A program made the position numbers and the translations under genes. The notes beneath the pieces are model-generated. The model was not told where the DNA came from, made no database searches, and saw nothing but the letters and a program-made list of their open reading frames with translations. A stretch of 64,000 bases of DNA from Armatimonadota bacterium (lineage in GTDB: Bacteria > Sysuimicrobiota > Sysuimicrobiia > Sysuimicrobiales > Sysuimicrobiaceae): NCBI GenBank assembly GCA_025060455.1, contig JANXBY010000003.1:34719-98718 (forward strand). Direction: 5' to 3'. Positions within the stretch are counted from its first letter, which is position 1. Each line of letters starts with the position of its first letter. This document shows positions 27,243 to 32,665 of this stretch, in pieces.

Positions 27243-27685
27243 AGGTGATCCTGATCCAGGACGTGCCGTCGTTGGGTAAGGCCGGCGCGGTGGTGGACGT
27301 CCGGGAGGGCTACGCCCGCAACTACCTGCTGCCCAGGGGGCTTGCGCGGGAGGCCACGGAGGGCCAGCTGCGGGCGCTGGAGCAGGAGCGGGCGGTGCGC
27401 GAACGGAAGCTGGCGCGGGAGCGGCAGCGGGCCGTGGAGGTGGCTCACGCCCTGCAGAGCCGTCCGGTGCGGATCCGGGCGAAGGCAGGGGCCGGCGGGA
27501 AGCTGTTCGGGTCGGTGACCGCGCAGCAGGTGGCGGAGGCGCTGCGGCAGATGGGCTTTGAGGTGGACCGCAGGCAGGTAGAGCTGGCGGAGCCCATCAA
27601 GGCGGTGGGAACCTACCGGGTCACGGTCCGGCTCCCCCACGGGCAGCAGGCAGAGGTGGAAGTGCAGGTGACCGGCGATGGCTGA
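27239..27685 (+). CDS. rplI: 50S ribosomal protein L9
   Basis: MKVILIQDVPSLGKAGAVVDVREGYARNYLLPRGLA matches the L9 N-domain. Confidence 0.9.
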   Translation: MKVILIQDVPSLGKAGAVVDVREGYARNYLLPRGLAREATEGQLRALEQERAVRERKLARERQRAVEVAHALQSRPVRIRAKAGAGGKLFGSVTAQQVAEALRQMGFEVDRRQVELAEPIKAVGTYRVTVRLPHGQQAEVEVQVTGDG

Positions 27686-29594
27686 ACGGGTGGGCGCCGC
27701 ACGCAGCATCAGGGTGCGGAACCGGGCCGAGTTGAAGCGCCGGGTGGGGGCCCTGTTCACGGTCCTCAGCGACGTGTACGGCCCGGAGCGGCTCATCGTG
27801 AAGGCAGGGAAGCTCGAGGCCCTCACACTCATGCGATCCCCCCGCCTGGCGGATCGGGTGGTGGCCCTGCAGCGGCTGGTGTACGAGGATCCGACCATCC
27901 AGCGGGCCCCCTCCGAGGCGGAGATCCCGAAGGTGTTGTCCGAGATCGAGGAGGAGCTGGCGGACCTAGTGGCGCAGCGCCGGGTGGAGGAGGAGCTGGA
28001 GCGCAAGGTGGCCGAGCGCATGAACCGCCGCCAGGACGACTACCTCCAGGAAATCCGGCTCCAGGTGCTCCGCGAGGCCGCGGGGCCGGAGAACGCCAGC
28101 ACCCGAAAGAAGCTGGAGGAGCTGGAAGCGCTGGAACGAGTCCGGCTGTCCCAGTCCGCCCTGGAGGCCCTGCGCCCCCGACGGCTGAAGGAGGTGGTGG
28201 GTCAAGAGCGCGCCATCCGGGCTCTGCTGGCTAAGCTGGCCACCCCCTACCCTCAGCACGTGATCCTGTACGGGCCGCCCGGGGTGGGTAAGACCACCGT
28301 GGCACGGCTGGCCCTGGAGGAAGCACGGCGGCTTCCGTACACCCCCTTCCCGGAGAACGCGCCCTTCGTGGAGGTGGACGGAAGTACCCTGCGGTGGGAC
28401 CCGCGGGAGGTCACCAACCCCCTCCTGGGGTCTGTGCACGACCCCATCTATCAGGGCTCGCGACGGGACTTCGCGGAAGGGGGCATTCCGGAGCCGAAGC
28501 TGGGGCTGGTCACCCGCGCCCACGGCGGCGTGCTGTTCATCGACGAGATCGGGGAGATGGACCCACTCCTGCAGGCCAAGCTGCTGAAGGTCCTGGAGGA
28601 CAAGCGGGTGACCTTTGAGTCCAGCTACTACGACCCGGACGACCCCCACGTGCCCGCCTACGTGCGCCGCCTGTTTGAGCAGGGCGCGCCCGCGGACTTC
28701 GTGCTGATCGGCGCCACCACCCGGGACCCGGAGGAGATCAGCCCCACCCTACGGTCTCGGTGCGCGGAGGTGTTCTTCGACCCTCTGTCGCAGTCGGACA
28801 TCGAGCGCATCGTGGTGCAGGCGGCGAAGCGGCTGCGCGTCAGCCTGGACCCCAAGGTGCCCGAGCTCATCGCCGCGTACACGGTGGAGGGGCGCAAGGC
28901 CGTGAACCTCCTCGCGGACGCCTACGGGATGGCCCTGTACCGCCGGAAGGGGCGGGGCGGCCGGGTGCGGATCACCCAGGAGGACATGCTGGAGGTCGTG
29001 CGGGTCTCACGTCTGGCGCCGTTTTCCAGCGCCCGGGCCTCGGAAACACCTGAGGTGGGGAAGGTGTTCGGGCTGGGCGTGGCGCACTACCTGGGCTCGG
29101 TGGTGGAGGTGGAGGCCGCGGTGTTCCCCGCCGCGCAGCGGGGCCGCGGCACGGTGCGGTTCAACGAGACCGCGGGCACCATGGCCAAGGACTCGGTGTT
29201 CAACGCCCTGTCGGTGCTGCGCCGGCTGCTGGGGGTCGACCTAGCGAACTACGACGTGCACGTGAACGTGGTGGGCGGCGGGTTGGTGGACGGCCCGAGC
29301 CTGGGGCTGGCCATCACGGCGGCCCTGGCGAGCGCGGTGCAGAACCGGCCGGCGCTGCAGAACGTGGCCCTCACCGGCGAGGTGAGCATCCAGGGCCGGG
29401 TGCGGGGCGTCGGAGGCATTCCGGAGAAGCTGTACGGCGCCCGACAGGCGGGGATGAAGAAGGTGGTGGTCCCACAGGAGAATCAGAACGACCTGCCCTC
29501 CGAGGTGTCGGGCCTGCAGGTTGTCCTGGTGCAGACGGTGGAGGAGGCCCTTCCGCACGTGCTGGTGGCCGCCCGGCGCCGGTCGCGGGCCTGA
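27678..29594 (+). CDS. Lon-family ATP-dependent protease (LonB/LonC-like, no Lon N-domain)
   Basis: AAA+ Walker A ILYGPPGVGKTTVARL, Walker B VLFIDEIGEMD, and a Lon proteolytic domain with the DGPSLGLAI serine motif. Overlaps the rplI stop. Confidence 0.85.
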   Translation: MAERVGAARSIRVRNRAELKRRVGALFTVLSDVYGPERLIVKAGKLEALTLMRSPRLADRVVALQRLVYEDPTIQRAPSEAEIPKVLSEIEEELADLVAQRRVEEELERKVAERMNRRQDDYLQEIRLQVLREAAGPENASTRKKLEELEALERVRLSQSALEALRPRRLKEVVGQERAIRALLAKLATPYPQHVILYGPPGVGKTTVARLALEEARRLPYTPFPENAPFVEVDGSTLRWDPREVTNPLLGSVHDPIYQGSRRDFAEGGIPEPKLGLVTRAHGGVLFIDEIGEMDPLLQAKLLKVLEDKRVTFESSYYDPDDPHVPAYVRRLFEQGAPADFVLIGATTRDPEEISPTLRSRCAEVFFDPLSQSDIERIVVQAAKRLRVSLDPKVPELIAAYTVEGRKAVNLLADAYGMALYRRKGRGGRVRITQEDMLEVVRVSRLAPFSSARASETPEVGKVFGLGVAHYLGSVVEVEAAVFPAAQRGRGTVRFNETAGTMAKDSVFNALSVLRRLLGVDLANYDVHVNVVGGGLVDGPSLGLAITAALASAVQNRPALQNVALTGEVSIQGRVRGVGGIPEKLYGARQAGMKKVVVPQENQNDLPSEVSGLQVVLVQTVEEALPHVLVAARRRSRA

Positions 29595-29729: not shown

Positions 29730-29787
29730 GCCGCGGTGTAGTAGGAGTTCCCCGTCGAGCCGGTAGAAAAGCAGGCGAACGGACGTT

Positions 29788-29796
29788 TGCTACAAT
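29788..29796 (+). promoter_or_regulatory. Extended -10 element TGCTACAAT for dnaB
   Basis: TGnTACAAT lies 12 nt upstream of the dnaB ATG region. RBS GGAGGT lies 5 nt before ATG 29808. Confidence 0.35.
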
Positions 29797-29807
29797 GGAG
29801 GTCGGAC

Positions 29808-32183
29808 ATGGCTGTGGCCGTTGACCGGGTCCCGCCCCAGAGCCTGGAGGCGGAGATGGGCGTCCTGGGATCCATGCTGCTGGACCGGGACGCCATCGCC
29901 ACCGTGGTGGAGCTGCTGCGTCCCGAGGACTTCTACCGGGAGGGGCACCGCCTGGTGTACTCCGCCATCGTGGAGTTGTTCGAACGCGGGGAGCCCGTGG
30001 ATCTGATCACCGTCACCGACCGCCTGCGCGACCTGGGCAAGCTGGAGGAGGCCGGGGGGGCCGCGTATGTGTCCAGCCTCCTCAACGCGGTGCCCACCGC
30101 GGCCAACGCGGAGTACTACGCGCGCATCGTGCTGCAGAAGTCCATGCTGCGGGCCCTGATCCGCGTGGGCACCCAGATCGCCCACATGGGCTTCGAGGGC
30201 GAAGAGGACGTCGAAGTGCTCGTGGACCGCGCAGAGCGGCTGGTGTTTGAGATCGCCAACCGCCGCATGCGGCAGGACTTCCAGCCCCTCCGGGACCTGA
30301 TCCGGGAAACCATGGAGCGGCTGGACAGCCACTACGAGCGGGGCATGATCACGGGCGTGCCCACCGGGTTCGTGGACCTGGACGAGCTCACAGGCGGCCT
30401 GCAGCGGGGCGACCTCGTGATCGTGGCCGCCCGGCCGTCCATGGGTAAGTGCCTGAAGTACGACAGCCTCGTGGTGGATCCCCGCACGGGACTCCTGCGC
30501 ACCATCGAGGAGATGGTGCGGTCCGGCGAGGGCACGGTCCTCACCCTGGACGGCGGCCGGCTGCGGGAGGCCAAGCCCTCCCACTTCGTGGACGACGGGG
30601 TCAAGCCCACCTTCCGGGTCCGCACCGCCCTTGGCCGCGAGGTGGAGGTCACCGCCACCCACCCGTTCCTGACGCCGGAAGGCTGGAAGCCCCTGGCCTC
30701 CCTGAGGCCCGGCCACTTCGTGGCCGTACCCGCGCGCATCCCCGTGTTCGGAACGCTGGACCTGCCGGGCGCAGAGGTGCGGATCATGGCGTACCTGAGC
30801 GCGGGTCGGCTGCCGGCTCAGCCGGAGGTGAGCCGGGACTTCTTGGATGCGGCCTCCGCGGCCGCCGCGGTGCGTGCCTCCCGCGTGCCTGCCCTGGTCG
30901 GCGCCCTCGGGGTGCGGGCGCACGGAGAGGGCCCGCAGCCCCAGGAAGCCGCCGCGGTGGTGGCGGAGTTCCTGCAGGACTACCCGGAGCTGGCGGAGCC
31001 GGACCACCGGCGGCGGCTGCCACCCGCGGCCTTCCAGCTGAACCGGGCCAAGCTGTGCCTGCTGCTGCGGTGCCTGCTCGGCTGCGTGGCCACCGTCCAG
31101 GGCGAACCCGACCGCTGGGGAGCGCCGGATGCGGACGCCTCCCAGGAGTTTTCGATCCGGGCGGAGCTGCCCAACGCCACCATGGCCCGACAGGTGCAGC
31201 ACCTCCTCCTGCGCCTGGGCGTGCTCAGCGCGTGGGACGGCCAGCGGGCGTTGGAGGTGAGGGGCACGAATGCCCTGCAGCTGCTCCGCACCTGTGGCGT
31301 CCTGGGCTGGGAACGGCTCCGGCAGTGGGCGCGCTACGCCCCCGAGCCGCTTTTGCCGGAGCCGGACGTGGTGTGGGACCCCATCGTGTCCGTGGAGTAC
31401 ACGGGCGACCACCCCGTGTACGACCTCACCGTGCCCGACACGCACAACTTCGTGGCCAACGACGTGTGCGTCCACAACACCACCTTCTGCCTGAACATCG
31501 CGCAGCACGCCGCGGTGGAGCACCGGGTGCCCGTGGCCATCTTCTCCCTGGAAACGAGCGCGGAGCAGCTGGTGCAGCGCATGCTGTGCGCTCAGGCGCA
31601 GGTAGACGGCCAGCGCCTGCGCCGCGGGTACCTGTCGGAGGCCGACTGGCGACGCCTCACCCGGGCCATGGGGGCCCTGGTGGAGGCGCCCATCTTCATC
31701 GACGACTCTTCCAACCTGTCCGTGGTGGAGATGCGCGCCAAGTCCCGGAAGCTGAAGGCGGAGCACGGGCTCGGGCTCATCGTGGTGGACTACATCCAGC
31801 TCATCCAGTCCTACAAGCGGACGGAGAACCGTACCCAGGAGCTCAGCGAGATCGCGCGGGCCATCAAGTCCCTGGCCAAAGAGCTGGACGTGCCCATCCT
31901 GGCCGTGTCCCAGCTGTCCCGGGCCGCAGAACAGGGAGGGTCCAAGATCCCCATGCTGAGCCACCTGCGGGAATCCGGGGAGCTGGAGCAGGTCGCAGAC
32001 CTGGTCCTGTTCCTGTACCGGGAGGACTACTACGACCCCGAACGCGCGCGCCGGGAGGGCAAGGAGAACGTGGCCCTGGTGCGGGTGGCCAAGCACCGCA
32101 ACGGCCCGACCGACGACCTCGAGTTGTTCTTCCACAAGGAGACCTCGCGGTTCGCGAACCTGGACACCCGGCACGGCGCCTGA
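29808..32183 (+). CDS. dnaB: Replicative DNA helicase DnaB (DnaC in Bacillus nomenclature), interrupted by an in-frame intein
   Basis: DnaB N-domain (SLEAEMGVLGSMLLD), P-loop split as GDLVIVAARPSMGK | intein | TTFCLNIAQ, then RecA-like motifs (LGLIVVDYIQLI, ILAVSQLSRA). The mature helicase is about 448 aa, and 791 aa with the intein. Confidence 0.9.
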   Translation: MAVAVDRVPPQSLEAEMGVLGSMLLDRDAIATVVELLRPEDFYREGHRLVYSAIVELFERGEPVDLITVTDRLRDLGKLEEAGGAAYVSSLLNAVPTAANAEYYARIVLQKSMLRALIRVGTQIAHMGFEGEEDVEVLVDRAERLVFEIANRRMRQDFQPLRDLIRETMERLDSHYERGMITGVPTGFVDLDELTGGLQRGDLVIVAARPSMGKCLKYDSLVVDPRTGLLRTIEEMVRSGEGTVLTLDGGRLREAKPSHFVDDGVKPTFRVRTALGREVEVTATHPFLTPEGWKPLASLRPGHFVAVPARIPVFGTLDLPGAEVRIMAYLSAGRLPAQPEVSRDFLDAASAAAAVRASRVPALVGALGVRAHGEGPQPQEAAAVVAEFLQDYPELAEPDHRRRLPPAAFQLNRAKLCLLLRCLLGCVATVQGEPDRWGAPDADASQEFSIRAELPNATMARQVQHLLLRLGVLSAWDGQRALEVRGTNALQLLRTCGVLGWERLRQWARYAPEPLLPEPDVVWDPIVSVEYTGDHPVYDLTVPDTHNFVANDVCVHNTTFCLNIAQHAAVEHRVPVAIFSLETSAEQLVQRMLCAQAQVDGQRLRRGYLSEADWRRLTRAMGALVEAPIFIDDSSNLSVVEMRAKSRKLKAEHGLGLIVVDYIQLIQSYKRTENRTQELSEIARAIKSLAKELDVPILAVSQLSRAAEQGGSKIPMLSHLRESGELEQVADLVLFLYREDYYDPERARREGKENVALVRVAKHRNGPTDDLELFFHKETSRFANLDTRHGA
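30450..31478 (+). mobile_element. DnaB intein (343 aa) inserted in the Walker A P-loop between GK and T
   Basis: Begins with Cys (CLKYDSLV) right after GK and ends with HN before the Thr +1 residue. Hint blocks present: TATHPFLT, VYDLTVPDTHNFVAN, VCVHN. The central region has only degenerate LAGLIDADG-like segments. Confidence 0.8.
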
Positions 32184-32242
32184 GCTACCTGCGTCCGGCC
32201 CCGCGTGGTAGAGTGGAGGCAAGTCCAGGTGGAGGGCGCGCC

Positions 32243-32665
32243 ATGGGCATTGGCCGGTGGCTACTGGCGGTAGGGGTGTTCGTGGCGGCTGCCGCGGTGT
32301 GGACCGCGGGATACGCAGCCGGCATCCAGCAAGCCTCGCGAGACGCCGTGCCCGTCGCCGCTCAGCCCGTGCAGGCTCCCCTTCAGGAGCTCATCCCGCT
32401 GCCGGGCCCCGGCCAGCAGTTTCCGGGGGCCCGGCCGCAGCCGGGGCAGGGGGACAAGTGCGAGGCCCGGGTATACCTGTTCTTCAACGGCCGGTTCTAC
32501 GAGATGCGGCCCGGCCCAGGGATCGGGCCTGACGGCCGGCCCATGGGCCCCCAGGAGCTGATCCCGCTGCAGCCCGCGCCCTCGCTACCAGGCCCTGGGT
32601 GGCCCGCTCCTCGCGGCAACCCGTTCGCCCCTCCCACCCCGTTCCCGCCCGGGTCGAGGTCGTAG
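32243..32665 (+). CDS. Small Pro-rich secreted or membrane-anchored hypothetical protein with internal repeat
   Basis: ATG lies 6 nt after GGTGGAGGG. N-terminal signal/TM (MGIGRWLLAVGVFVAAAAVW) followed by two copies of a PQELIPL(P/Q) motif, also repeated at the DNA level. Confidence 0.5.
   Translation: MGIGRWLLAVGVFVAAAAVWTAGYAAGIQQASRDAVPVAAQPVQAPLQELIPLPGPGQQFPGARPQPGQGDKCEARVYLFFNGRFYEMRPGPGIGPDGRPMGPQELIPLQPAPSLPGPGWPAPRGNPFAPPTPFPPGSRS

Follow-up and report, generated by a model that had tools for sequence, protein, structure and literature searches.

A predicted class 1 intein with a degenerate LAGLIDADG domain in the P-loop of DnaB from an Armatimonadota bacterium

Background

DnaB, the replicative helicase, is the commonest bacterial host of inteins (317 inteins in ten phyla, including Firmicutes), and three insertion sites in it were distinguished by Novikova et al. 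2016: a and c in motif H4, and b in the P-loop (PMC4760082). Site b, defined in PMC4760082 and PMC6195587, is also occupied by the inteins of mycobacterial DnaB proteins (M. smegmatis DnaBi1, M. leprae DnaB and MchDnaB-1, PDB 6riy), in which splicing is required to rebuild the P-loop (PMC6195587). The DnaB inteins of Synechocystis and Nostoc punctiforme (PDB 1mi8, 4o1r and 6frh) are found in site a, in motif H4 and not in the P-loop; for the Ssp type this position is read from the native flanks LRESG/.../SIEQD (slashes mark the intein junctions) in the PDB constructs 6frh, 6frg and 6fre. The solved Synechocystis and Nostoc forms are engineered or natural mini-inteins. An earlier note on the locus described here named cyanobacterial DnaB as a P-loop comparator, and this is right for other cyanobacterial DnaBs, which carry site-b inteins, but not for the Synechocystis type.

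The homing cycle is well known to include a stage at which the endonuclease of an intein has been inactivated. Class 3 inteins have no position-1 nucleophile and are recognized by a Trp-Cys-Thr signature, with the Cys of block F as the first nucleophile.

Results

The dnaB gene and its neighbourhood

The dnaB open-reading frame occupies positions 29787..32183 on the plus strand of the window (the whole 64-kb stretch of DNA that was analysed), and its translation and profile matches show that it encodes DnaB. The gene likely starts at the ATG at 29808, which is preceded, 6 nt upstream, by GGAGG at 29797-29801 (Table 1). The 791-aa product has a residue-for-residue match in public databases (NCBI), where the records, from Armatimonadota MAGs, name it only 'replicative DNA helicase'. 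Other members of its cluster carry the label candidate division GAL15, a group that the NCBI taxonomy now puts under Candidatus Sysuimicrobiota.

The neighbourhood of the gene is chromosomal, with replication and translation genes: ychF, rpsF, ssb, a DUF2232 membrane protein gene, rplI and a Lon-family (Lon-like) protease gene lie upstream in this order, and dnaB is followed by a minus-strand gene of the URO-D family and a gene of the IF-2B family. The order Lon-dnaB is also found in HRbin32. Two other long open-reading frames, an antisense one of 810 aa (29790..32222) and a +2-frame one of 738 aa (30449..32665), were rejected as genes, because long frames other than dnaB are expected where the window has a GC content of 71% and GC3 in the dnaB frame is 0.93.

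Table 1. Coordinates of dnaB and of its intein in the window
Feature	Position	Strand	Remarks
dnaB precursor gene	29808..32183	+	791 codons and TGA stop; Pfam DnaB matches, exact database product
N-extein, 214 aa	29808..30449	+	DnaB N-terminal domain, linker and start of ATPase domain; ends ...AARPSMGK (first part of Walker A); Pfam DnaB N-domain and DnaB_C matches
Intein, 343 aa, predicted class 1 (Cys1 ... His342-Asn343)	30450..31478	+	Profiles, alignment and fold
N-terminal splicing region, intein aa 1-102	30450..30755	+	TIGR01445, 41.9 bits (cut-off 24.5); dN/dS 0.11
Block A, Cys1	30450-30452	+	
Block B, TxxH within TATHPFLT (T68-A-T-H71)	30651-30674	+	T68 and H71 invariant
Degenerate LAGLIDADG-fold domain, intein aa 103-295	30756..31334	+	Predicted to be catalytically dead
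LAGLIDADG motif 1 remnant (block C), IMAYLSAGRL, intein aa 112-121	30783..30812	+	Gly at the catalytic Asp/Glu position; alignment and HMM alignment
LAGLIDADG motif 2 remnant (block E), LCLLLRCLLGCVATV, intein aa 202-216	31053..31097	+	Val at the catalytic Asp position; alignment and HMM alignment
ARQVQHLLLRLG, endonuclease-domain motif most conserved in the family	31185..31220	+	Sole part still recognized by Pfam LAGLIDADG_3
C-terminal splicing region, intein aa 296-343	31335..31478	+	TIGR01443, 34.1 bits (cut-off 15.6); invariant columns; dN/dS 0.17
Block F, VYDLTVPDTHNFVAND	31416-31463	+	Contains no Cys
Block G, VCVHN	31464-31478	+	His342-Asn343
C-extein, 234 aa	31479..32180	+	First residue Thr+1 (31479-31481), the Walker A Thr and predicted splicing nucleophile

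Insertion in the P-loop

The insert translates to exactly 343 codons (CLKYDSLV...VCVHN), with ...VIVAARPSMGK before it and TTFCLNIAQ... after it. Since the flanks are GK and T, the insert falls between the Lys and the Thr of the Walker A motif GK[TS] (ARPSMGK/C...N/TTF), and the intein thus occupies DnaB insertion site b. Database relatives show both sites, many reading GK/C...HN/T (site b) and others RESG/C...HN/SIEQD (site a); the H4-site sequence LRESGELEQ in the C-extein of the window is uninterrupted. An intein-free homologue (L001) reads AARPSVGKTTFC at the insertion point. The insertion is in frame at a conserved host site, and its clean excision restores the host protein: removal of residues 215-557 leaves a spliced DnaB of 448 aa that matches the equivalog models as a single contiguous stretch, with 553 bits for TIGR00665 (cut-off 385) and 568 bits for NF004384 (cut-off 525). 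All of the coordinates, junction residues and internal strings given in the earlier note for a 343-aa P-loop intein were correct, and its assignment of Cys1, the terminal HN and Thr+1 was borne out by the Hint profiles given below, the contiguous spliced DnaB and the homologue L001.

The splicing domain

Curated profiles identify a Hint-fold splicing domain, as the earlier note had anticipated: Pfam Intein_splicing matches the intein with 80.1 bits (cut-off 35.8), and both TIGR01445 (intein_Nterm) and TIGR01443 (intein_Cterm) match above their cut-offs. The closest solved proteins are the Npu (Nostoc) and Ssp (Synechocystis) DnaB mini-inteins (E = 2e-22 to 7e-19). No second Hint domain was found in the six frames of the 64-kb window. 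The Hint profile matches and the contiguous spliced DnaB reject the reading of the insert as a normal DnaB linker.

The position-1 nucleophile (Cys1), the block B TxxH (T68 and H71), D325, H332, and the C-terminal His-Asn (H342 and N343) followed by Thr at +1 are all present, and the catalytic residues of the intein are invariant both in a nine-sequence alignment of distant relatives and in 11 close relatives; in the latter Thr+1 does not vary either. By the residues present, the insert is a class 1 intein, and it is predicted to splice. A class 3 mechanism was rejected, since the intein has Cys1 and there is no Cys in its block F. The site-b inteins of M. smegmatis and M. leprae, in contrast, have been described as class 3, and the structure of MchDnaB-1 (6riy) is absent from the phmmer matches of the window's intein.

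Compared with DnaB site-b LAGLIDADG inteins (PMC4760082; P0016, P0019, P0030 and P0033), the insertion is at the same point, after Lys in A/G-R-P-x-M-G-K-T. Site-b inteins are seen in cyanobacterial, acidobacterial, Chloroflexota and Gemmatimonadota DnaBs, and these have Cys1, a ...NDxCVHN terminus and Thr/Ser at +1, as does the intein of the window. The Hint blocks and the endonuclease scaffold of the site-b relatives are homologous to those of the window, with 31-37% identity over the whole intein. Their longest aligned canonical members (P0019 and P0011) have 424-432 aa, against the 343 aa found here.

The degenerate LAGLIDADG domain

Unlike the solved mini-inteins of Synechocystis and Nostoc, the window's intein keeps an endonuclease remnant. 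A profile HMM built from the 42 canonical central domains of alignment A2, with the degenerate clade excluded, matched residues 99-300 with 54.3 bits (best of 500 shuffles, 3.9), although only positions 1-167 of 276 of the model were spanned; by this profile evidence the central domain shares ancestry with the endonuclease domains of canonical inteins. The score for Pfam LAGLIDADG_3 (PF14528) was 12.0 bits (E = 0.27), under the cut-off of 22.5 and thus short of family membership, and it falls in a graded manner from 70 bits in the canonical P0019 to 19 in P0001, 13 in P0002 and 12 in the window. The stretch recognized is intein aa 245-260 (central-query aa 147-162). HLLLR is invariant in the nine-sequence alignment of distant relatives and nearly invariant in the larger alignment A2.

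At motif 1, the window reads IMAYLSAGR where canonical site-b relatives have LLAYLIGDG, ILAYLIADG and LIAHLIAEG, and at motif 2 it reads LLRCLLGCVA where they have FLARLFATDG and FLNRLFTCDG. In this alignment the two positions of the metal-binding acids are thus taken by Gly and Val, and no Asp or Glu is found at the C-terminal end of either motif, in contrast to the solved endonuclease-bearing inteins. The stretch LLRCLLGCVATV is present within intein aa 202-216, and the motif 2 remnant holds three lineage-specific cysteines. Compared with canonical relatives, the domain lacks about 11 residues that follow motif 1 and about 13 that follow the invariant HLLLRFG, and ahead of block F it lacks an accessory module of about 75 residues; hairpin segments are lost as well.

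The LAGLIDADG fold itself (two halves, each alpha-beta-beta-alpha-beta-beta-alpha, that pack against each other by way of the motif helices) was recognized in the fold comparison (Table 2). The endonuclease-bearing inteins in this comparison (TliVMA 7qsu, PI-PkoII 2cw8, PI-PfuI 1dq3 and PI-SceI 1jva) come from other host proteins and are only 13-20% identical in sequence. The domain retains its fold, but the catalytic chemistry appears, from the residues at the two motifs, to have been lost. The two stretches that the earlier note had quoted as decayed LAGLIDADG correspond in the alignment to motif 1 (LLAYLIGDG) and motif 2 (FLNRLFATDG) of canonical relatives, Gly and Val standing in place of the acids; 'decayed' holds for the catalytic acids but not in the sense of free decay, since the fold is retained and purifying selection acts on the domain (dN/dS 0.30; see below).

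Table 2. Fold comparison of the window's intein
Group	Structures	Score	Extent
Endonuclease-bearing inteins	TliVMA, PI-PkoII, PI-PfuI, PI-SceI	28.0, 26.1, 22.7, 20.1	285-292
Mini-inteins	Npu DnaB, Mtu RecA and others	up to 24.1	95-146
Free-standing LAGLIDADG folds	WhiA, I-Tsp061I, I-DmoI, I-CreI	7-10	up to ~150

Relatives, selection and age

A scan of species-representative genomes found one orthologous intein-bearing allele, that of Bacterium HR32 (HRbin32). Its DnaB has 786 aa, with the same junctions and degenerate motifs, and its intein is 80% identical. The next nearest DnaB alleles are uninterrupted, namely that of a Bacillota-labelled MAG (70% identity) and the best metagenome match (67%). 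Intein-free dnaB alleles, which the earlier note had suggested looking for in sister taxa, exist at 67-76% identity, but the closest ortholog carries the intein. No closer allele, intein-free or intein-bearing, was found above 67% in the metagenome scan, and this is weak evidence, because ranking by the best contiguous segment disfavours split alleles. The 90%-identity cluster of the protein has 33 members; among the 15 listed, ten have 791 aa and one has 790 aa, and the intein is present, free of frameshifts, in all 11 of the aligned members.

More distantly, P0001, P0002, P0003 and P0013 have motif losses and deletions in common with the window's intein; their inteins are 51-55% and their C-exteins 66-74% identical to those of the window (about 50% and 66-72% for P0001 and P0002). 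In P0003 the intein has shrunk to 255 aa and the motif-2 region is gone. The degenerate state is common to HRbin32, P0001 and P0002, and the decay is therefore old; the shared losses indicate that the inactivation of the endonuclease predates the P0001, P0002, P0003 and P0013 lineages. The GC3 of the intein (0.93) equals that of the exteins (0.935-0.944), so the element has been long resident.

By Nei-Gojobori counting for one pair (window versus HRbin32; 95% bootstrap CI), dN/dS was 0.07 (0.04-0.11) for the exteins, 0.13 (0.07-0.21) for the Hint blocks and 0.30 (0.20-0.44) for the central domain. The strong constraint on the exteins and the Hint blocks implies that the gene is functional and that splicing is under selection. 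The dead endonuclease is relaxed about four-fold relative to the exteins and is clearly non-neutral.

Discussion

We consider it highly probable that the insert is a class 1 site-b intein in a chromosomal dnaB of an uncultured high-GC bacterium, with a dead endonuclease, and that it is now a fixed passenger passed on by vertical descent. From the conserved residues and the selection on them, splicing would follow class 1 chemistry: Cys1 would undergo an N-S acyl shift to a thioester, the N-extein would then be transferred to the hydroxyl of Thr+1, Asn343 would cyclise with the assistance of His342 to release the intein, and an O-N shift would re-form the GK-T peptide bond. Because Thr+1 doubles as the Walker A Thr, the precursor has no intact P-loop, and since the P-loop is intact only after splicing, splicing would be obligatory for helicase activity; we infer that the precursor cannot hydrolyse ATP before it is spliced. 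The intein would formerly have borne a homing endonuclease of the LAGLIDADG type, from which the two catalytic acids, the C-terminal accessory module and some of the DNA-contacting beta-hairpin structure have since disappeared. With these catalytic and structural losses homing would be impossible, and the inheritance therefore vertical. The remnant is still folded and selected, probably because the intein must fold to splice: as it sits in a loop of the Hint fold, splicing, and with it the essential helicase, would depend on its compact folding.

An endonuclease that is still active through non-canonical catalytic residues, in an intein that is still mobile, would account for the intact open-reading frame under purifying selection and for the retained LAGLIDADG fold, and a few LAGLIDADG enzymes do tolerate unusual active-site residues. 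However, we know of none that works without any acidic residue at either motif, and here neither motif ends in one, the deletions have removed segments after motif 1 and after HLLLRFG as well as the accessory module, the composition is fully ameliorated, the degenerate state is found in hosts at 66-75% extein identity, which fits vertical descent, and DnaB alleles at 67-76% identity stay intein-free. We regard continued activity as very improbable. Nothing beyond the insertion itself speaks for a lineage-specific DnaB insertion domain or a decaying pseudogene, and both are refuted by the Hint profiles above their cut-offs, by boundaries that fall exactly at Cys1 and HN/T, by the extein dN/dS of 0.07, by the frameshift-free insert in 11 genomes and by the contiguity of the spliced DnaB; their likelihood is negligible.

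At 0.30, the dN/dS of the central domain is below the expectation for pure decay, so a function beyond scaffolding is possible, and the dead LAGLIDADG domain might have been co-opted for the benefit of the host: it might bind DNA or a partner, or its Cys-rich remnant might sense redox state, and DnaB splicing and hence replication would thereby become conditional. The same constraint, however, is expected of a domain in the Hint loop that merely needs to fold for splicing. The DNA-contacting hairpins and the accessory module have been deleted, the motif-2 cysteines are missing in P0001 and P0002, and the clade member P0003 lost the motif-2 region, so a relative can do without the domain. Co-option is accordingly unlikely, and its more particular form, in which a domesticated LAGLIDADG module analogous to WhiA would gate P-loop splicing through invariant cysteines or DNA binding, slightly more so; if it were true, the environment would determine in this lineage whether the replicative helicase is activated. 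That the remnant regulates splicing or has been co-opted is possible, and is unsupported by the evidence of this analysis.

Beyond annotation, the importance of the intein as a vertically inherited passenger is small: it is genuine, but it belongs to the most common kind of intein in bacteria and is an ordinary case of it, DnaB being the top bacterial host and the P-loop one of three documented sites. The annotation of a protein that stands on public record under a generic name can be corrected. A single clade offers a size series, from intact-motif forms of up to 424-432 aa through dead forms of 326-343 aa to a near-mini-intein of 255 aa, which could help studies of intein shrinkage. If the organism is thermophilic, protein engineers might also take an interest in the intein, which would then be a candidate for a thermostable P-loop intein of class 1 with Thr+1.

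Two apparent intein lineages at the DnaB P-loop

In its Hint domain, the window intein (positions 30450-31478), inserted in the Walker A P-loop of DnaB (site b), matches the cyanobacterial DnaB inteins of site a, which lies in motif H4, far better (43% identity; PDB 4o1r) than it does mycobacterial MchDnaB-1 (22% identity; PDB 6riy). The P-loop inteins of M. smegmatis and M. leprae belong to class 3 (PMC6195587). Taken with these identities, this points to two intein lineages that apparently reached the DnaB P-loop independently, one being akin to the inteins of the H4 site.

Close relatives of the window intein are also carried by unrelated host proteins, in which the insertion point immediately follows a Gly-Lys dipeptide, and these relatives show the pattern …VYDLT[VI]P.THNFVA[ND]D..VHN. 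The hosts are AAA_24 ATPases (P0023, P0038 and P0039), with the intein at GK/S (the slash marks the insertion point), and dCTP deaminases (P0020, P0025, P0035, P0042 and P0066), with the intein at C[VL]GK/STYARCG. These insertions suggest that the family moved from host to host, at sites sharing a local GK[ST] sequence. P0011 and P0012 are further intein relatives of this group.

Reduction of the intein

Within one clade, intein lengths descend from as much as 424–432 aa in relatives with intact LAGLIDADG motifs, through 326–343 aa, to 255 aa. In a sister group (P0003, P0004, P0007 and P0013) of the degenerate clade, the one with decayed motifs, Glu is still present at the motif-1 position (LLAYLCAETMP), and the 255-aa intein of P0003 has undergone an additional internal deletion that takes out the motif-2 region. 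In the motif-intact relatives (for example, P0016, P0019 and P0011), both in the nine-sequence alignment of distant relatives and in the larger alignment, the endonuclease domain is followed by an additional module of about 75 aa that precedes block F and has the pattern N.D.IP...W...HVG.R.L.R.RL...LA.SDVYWD. In the window intein, this module is completely deleted. It probably served as an accessory for DNA recognition; in several relatives, the protein also has, at some position along its length, a Pfam HTH_3 or HTH_31 call.

Conserved cysteines

Among the database relatives and in the nine-sequence alignment, almost every class 1 DnaB intein of site b has a Cys three residues ahead of the terminal Asn (NDxCVHN; Cys340 in the window intein, within VCVHN), but this Cys is not conserved in the inteins of site a. 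All six Cys of the window intein are invariant across the 11-member cluster of close relatives, and a putative redox-sensitive disulfide with Cys1 is conceivable. The further Cys are Cys203, Cys208, Cys212 and Cys282.

Annotation and neighborhood of dnaB

Features in and around dnaB (window positions)
Feature	Position	Strand	Size	Remark
Lon-family protease	27678-29594	+	638 aa	AAA+ and Lon_C domains
Antisense ORF over dnaB	29790..32222	-	810 aa	rejected as a gene
+2-frame ORF over dnaB	30449..32665	+	738 aa	rejected as a gene
Cys340 codon	31467-31469

The product of dnaB (window positions 29808-32183) is labelled only 'replicative DNA helicase' in the public records (MCS7234436.1 and MDW8155034.1), in which the intein is unmentioned. 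Near-identical proteins bear conflicting taxon labels, namely, Armatimonadota, candidate division GAL15 (Ca. Sysuimicrobiota) and Firmicutes/Bacillota. The two long ORFs overlapping dnaB were rejected as genes, because such artefacts are expected at 71% GC and a GC3 of 0.93. The Lon-family protease gene lies directly 5' of dnaB, and the same arrangement is found in Bacterium HR32 (HRbin32), which carries the orthologous intein-bearing dnaB.
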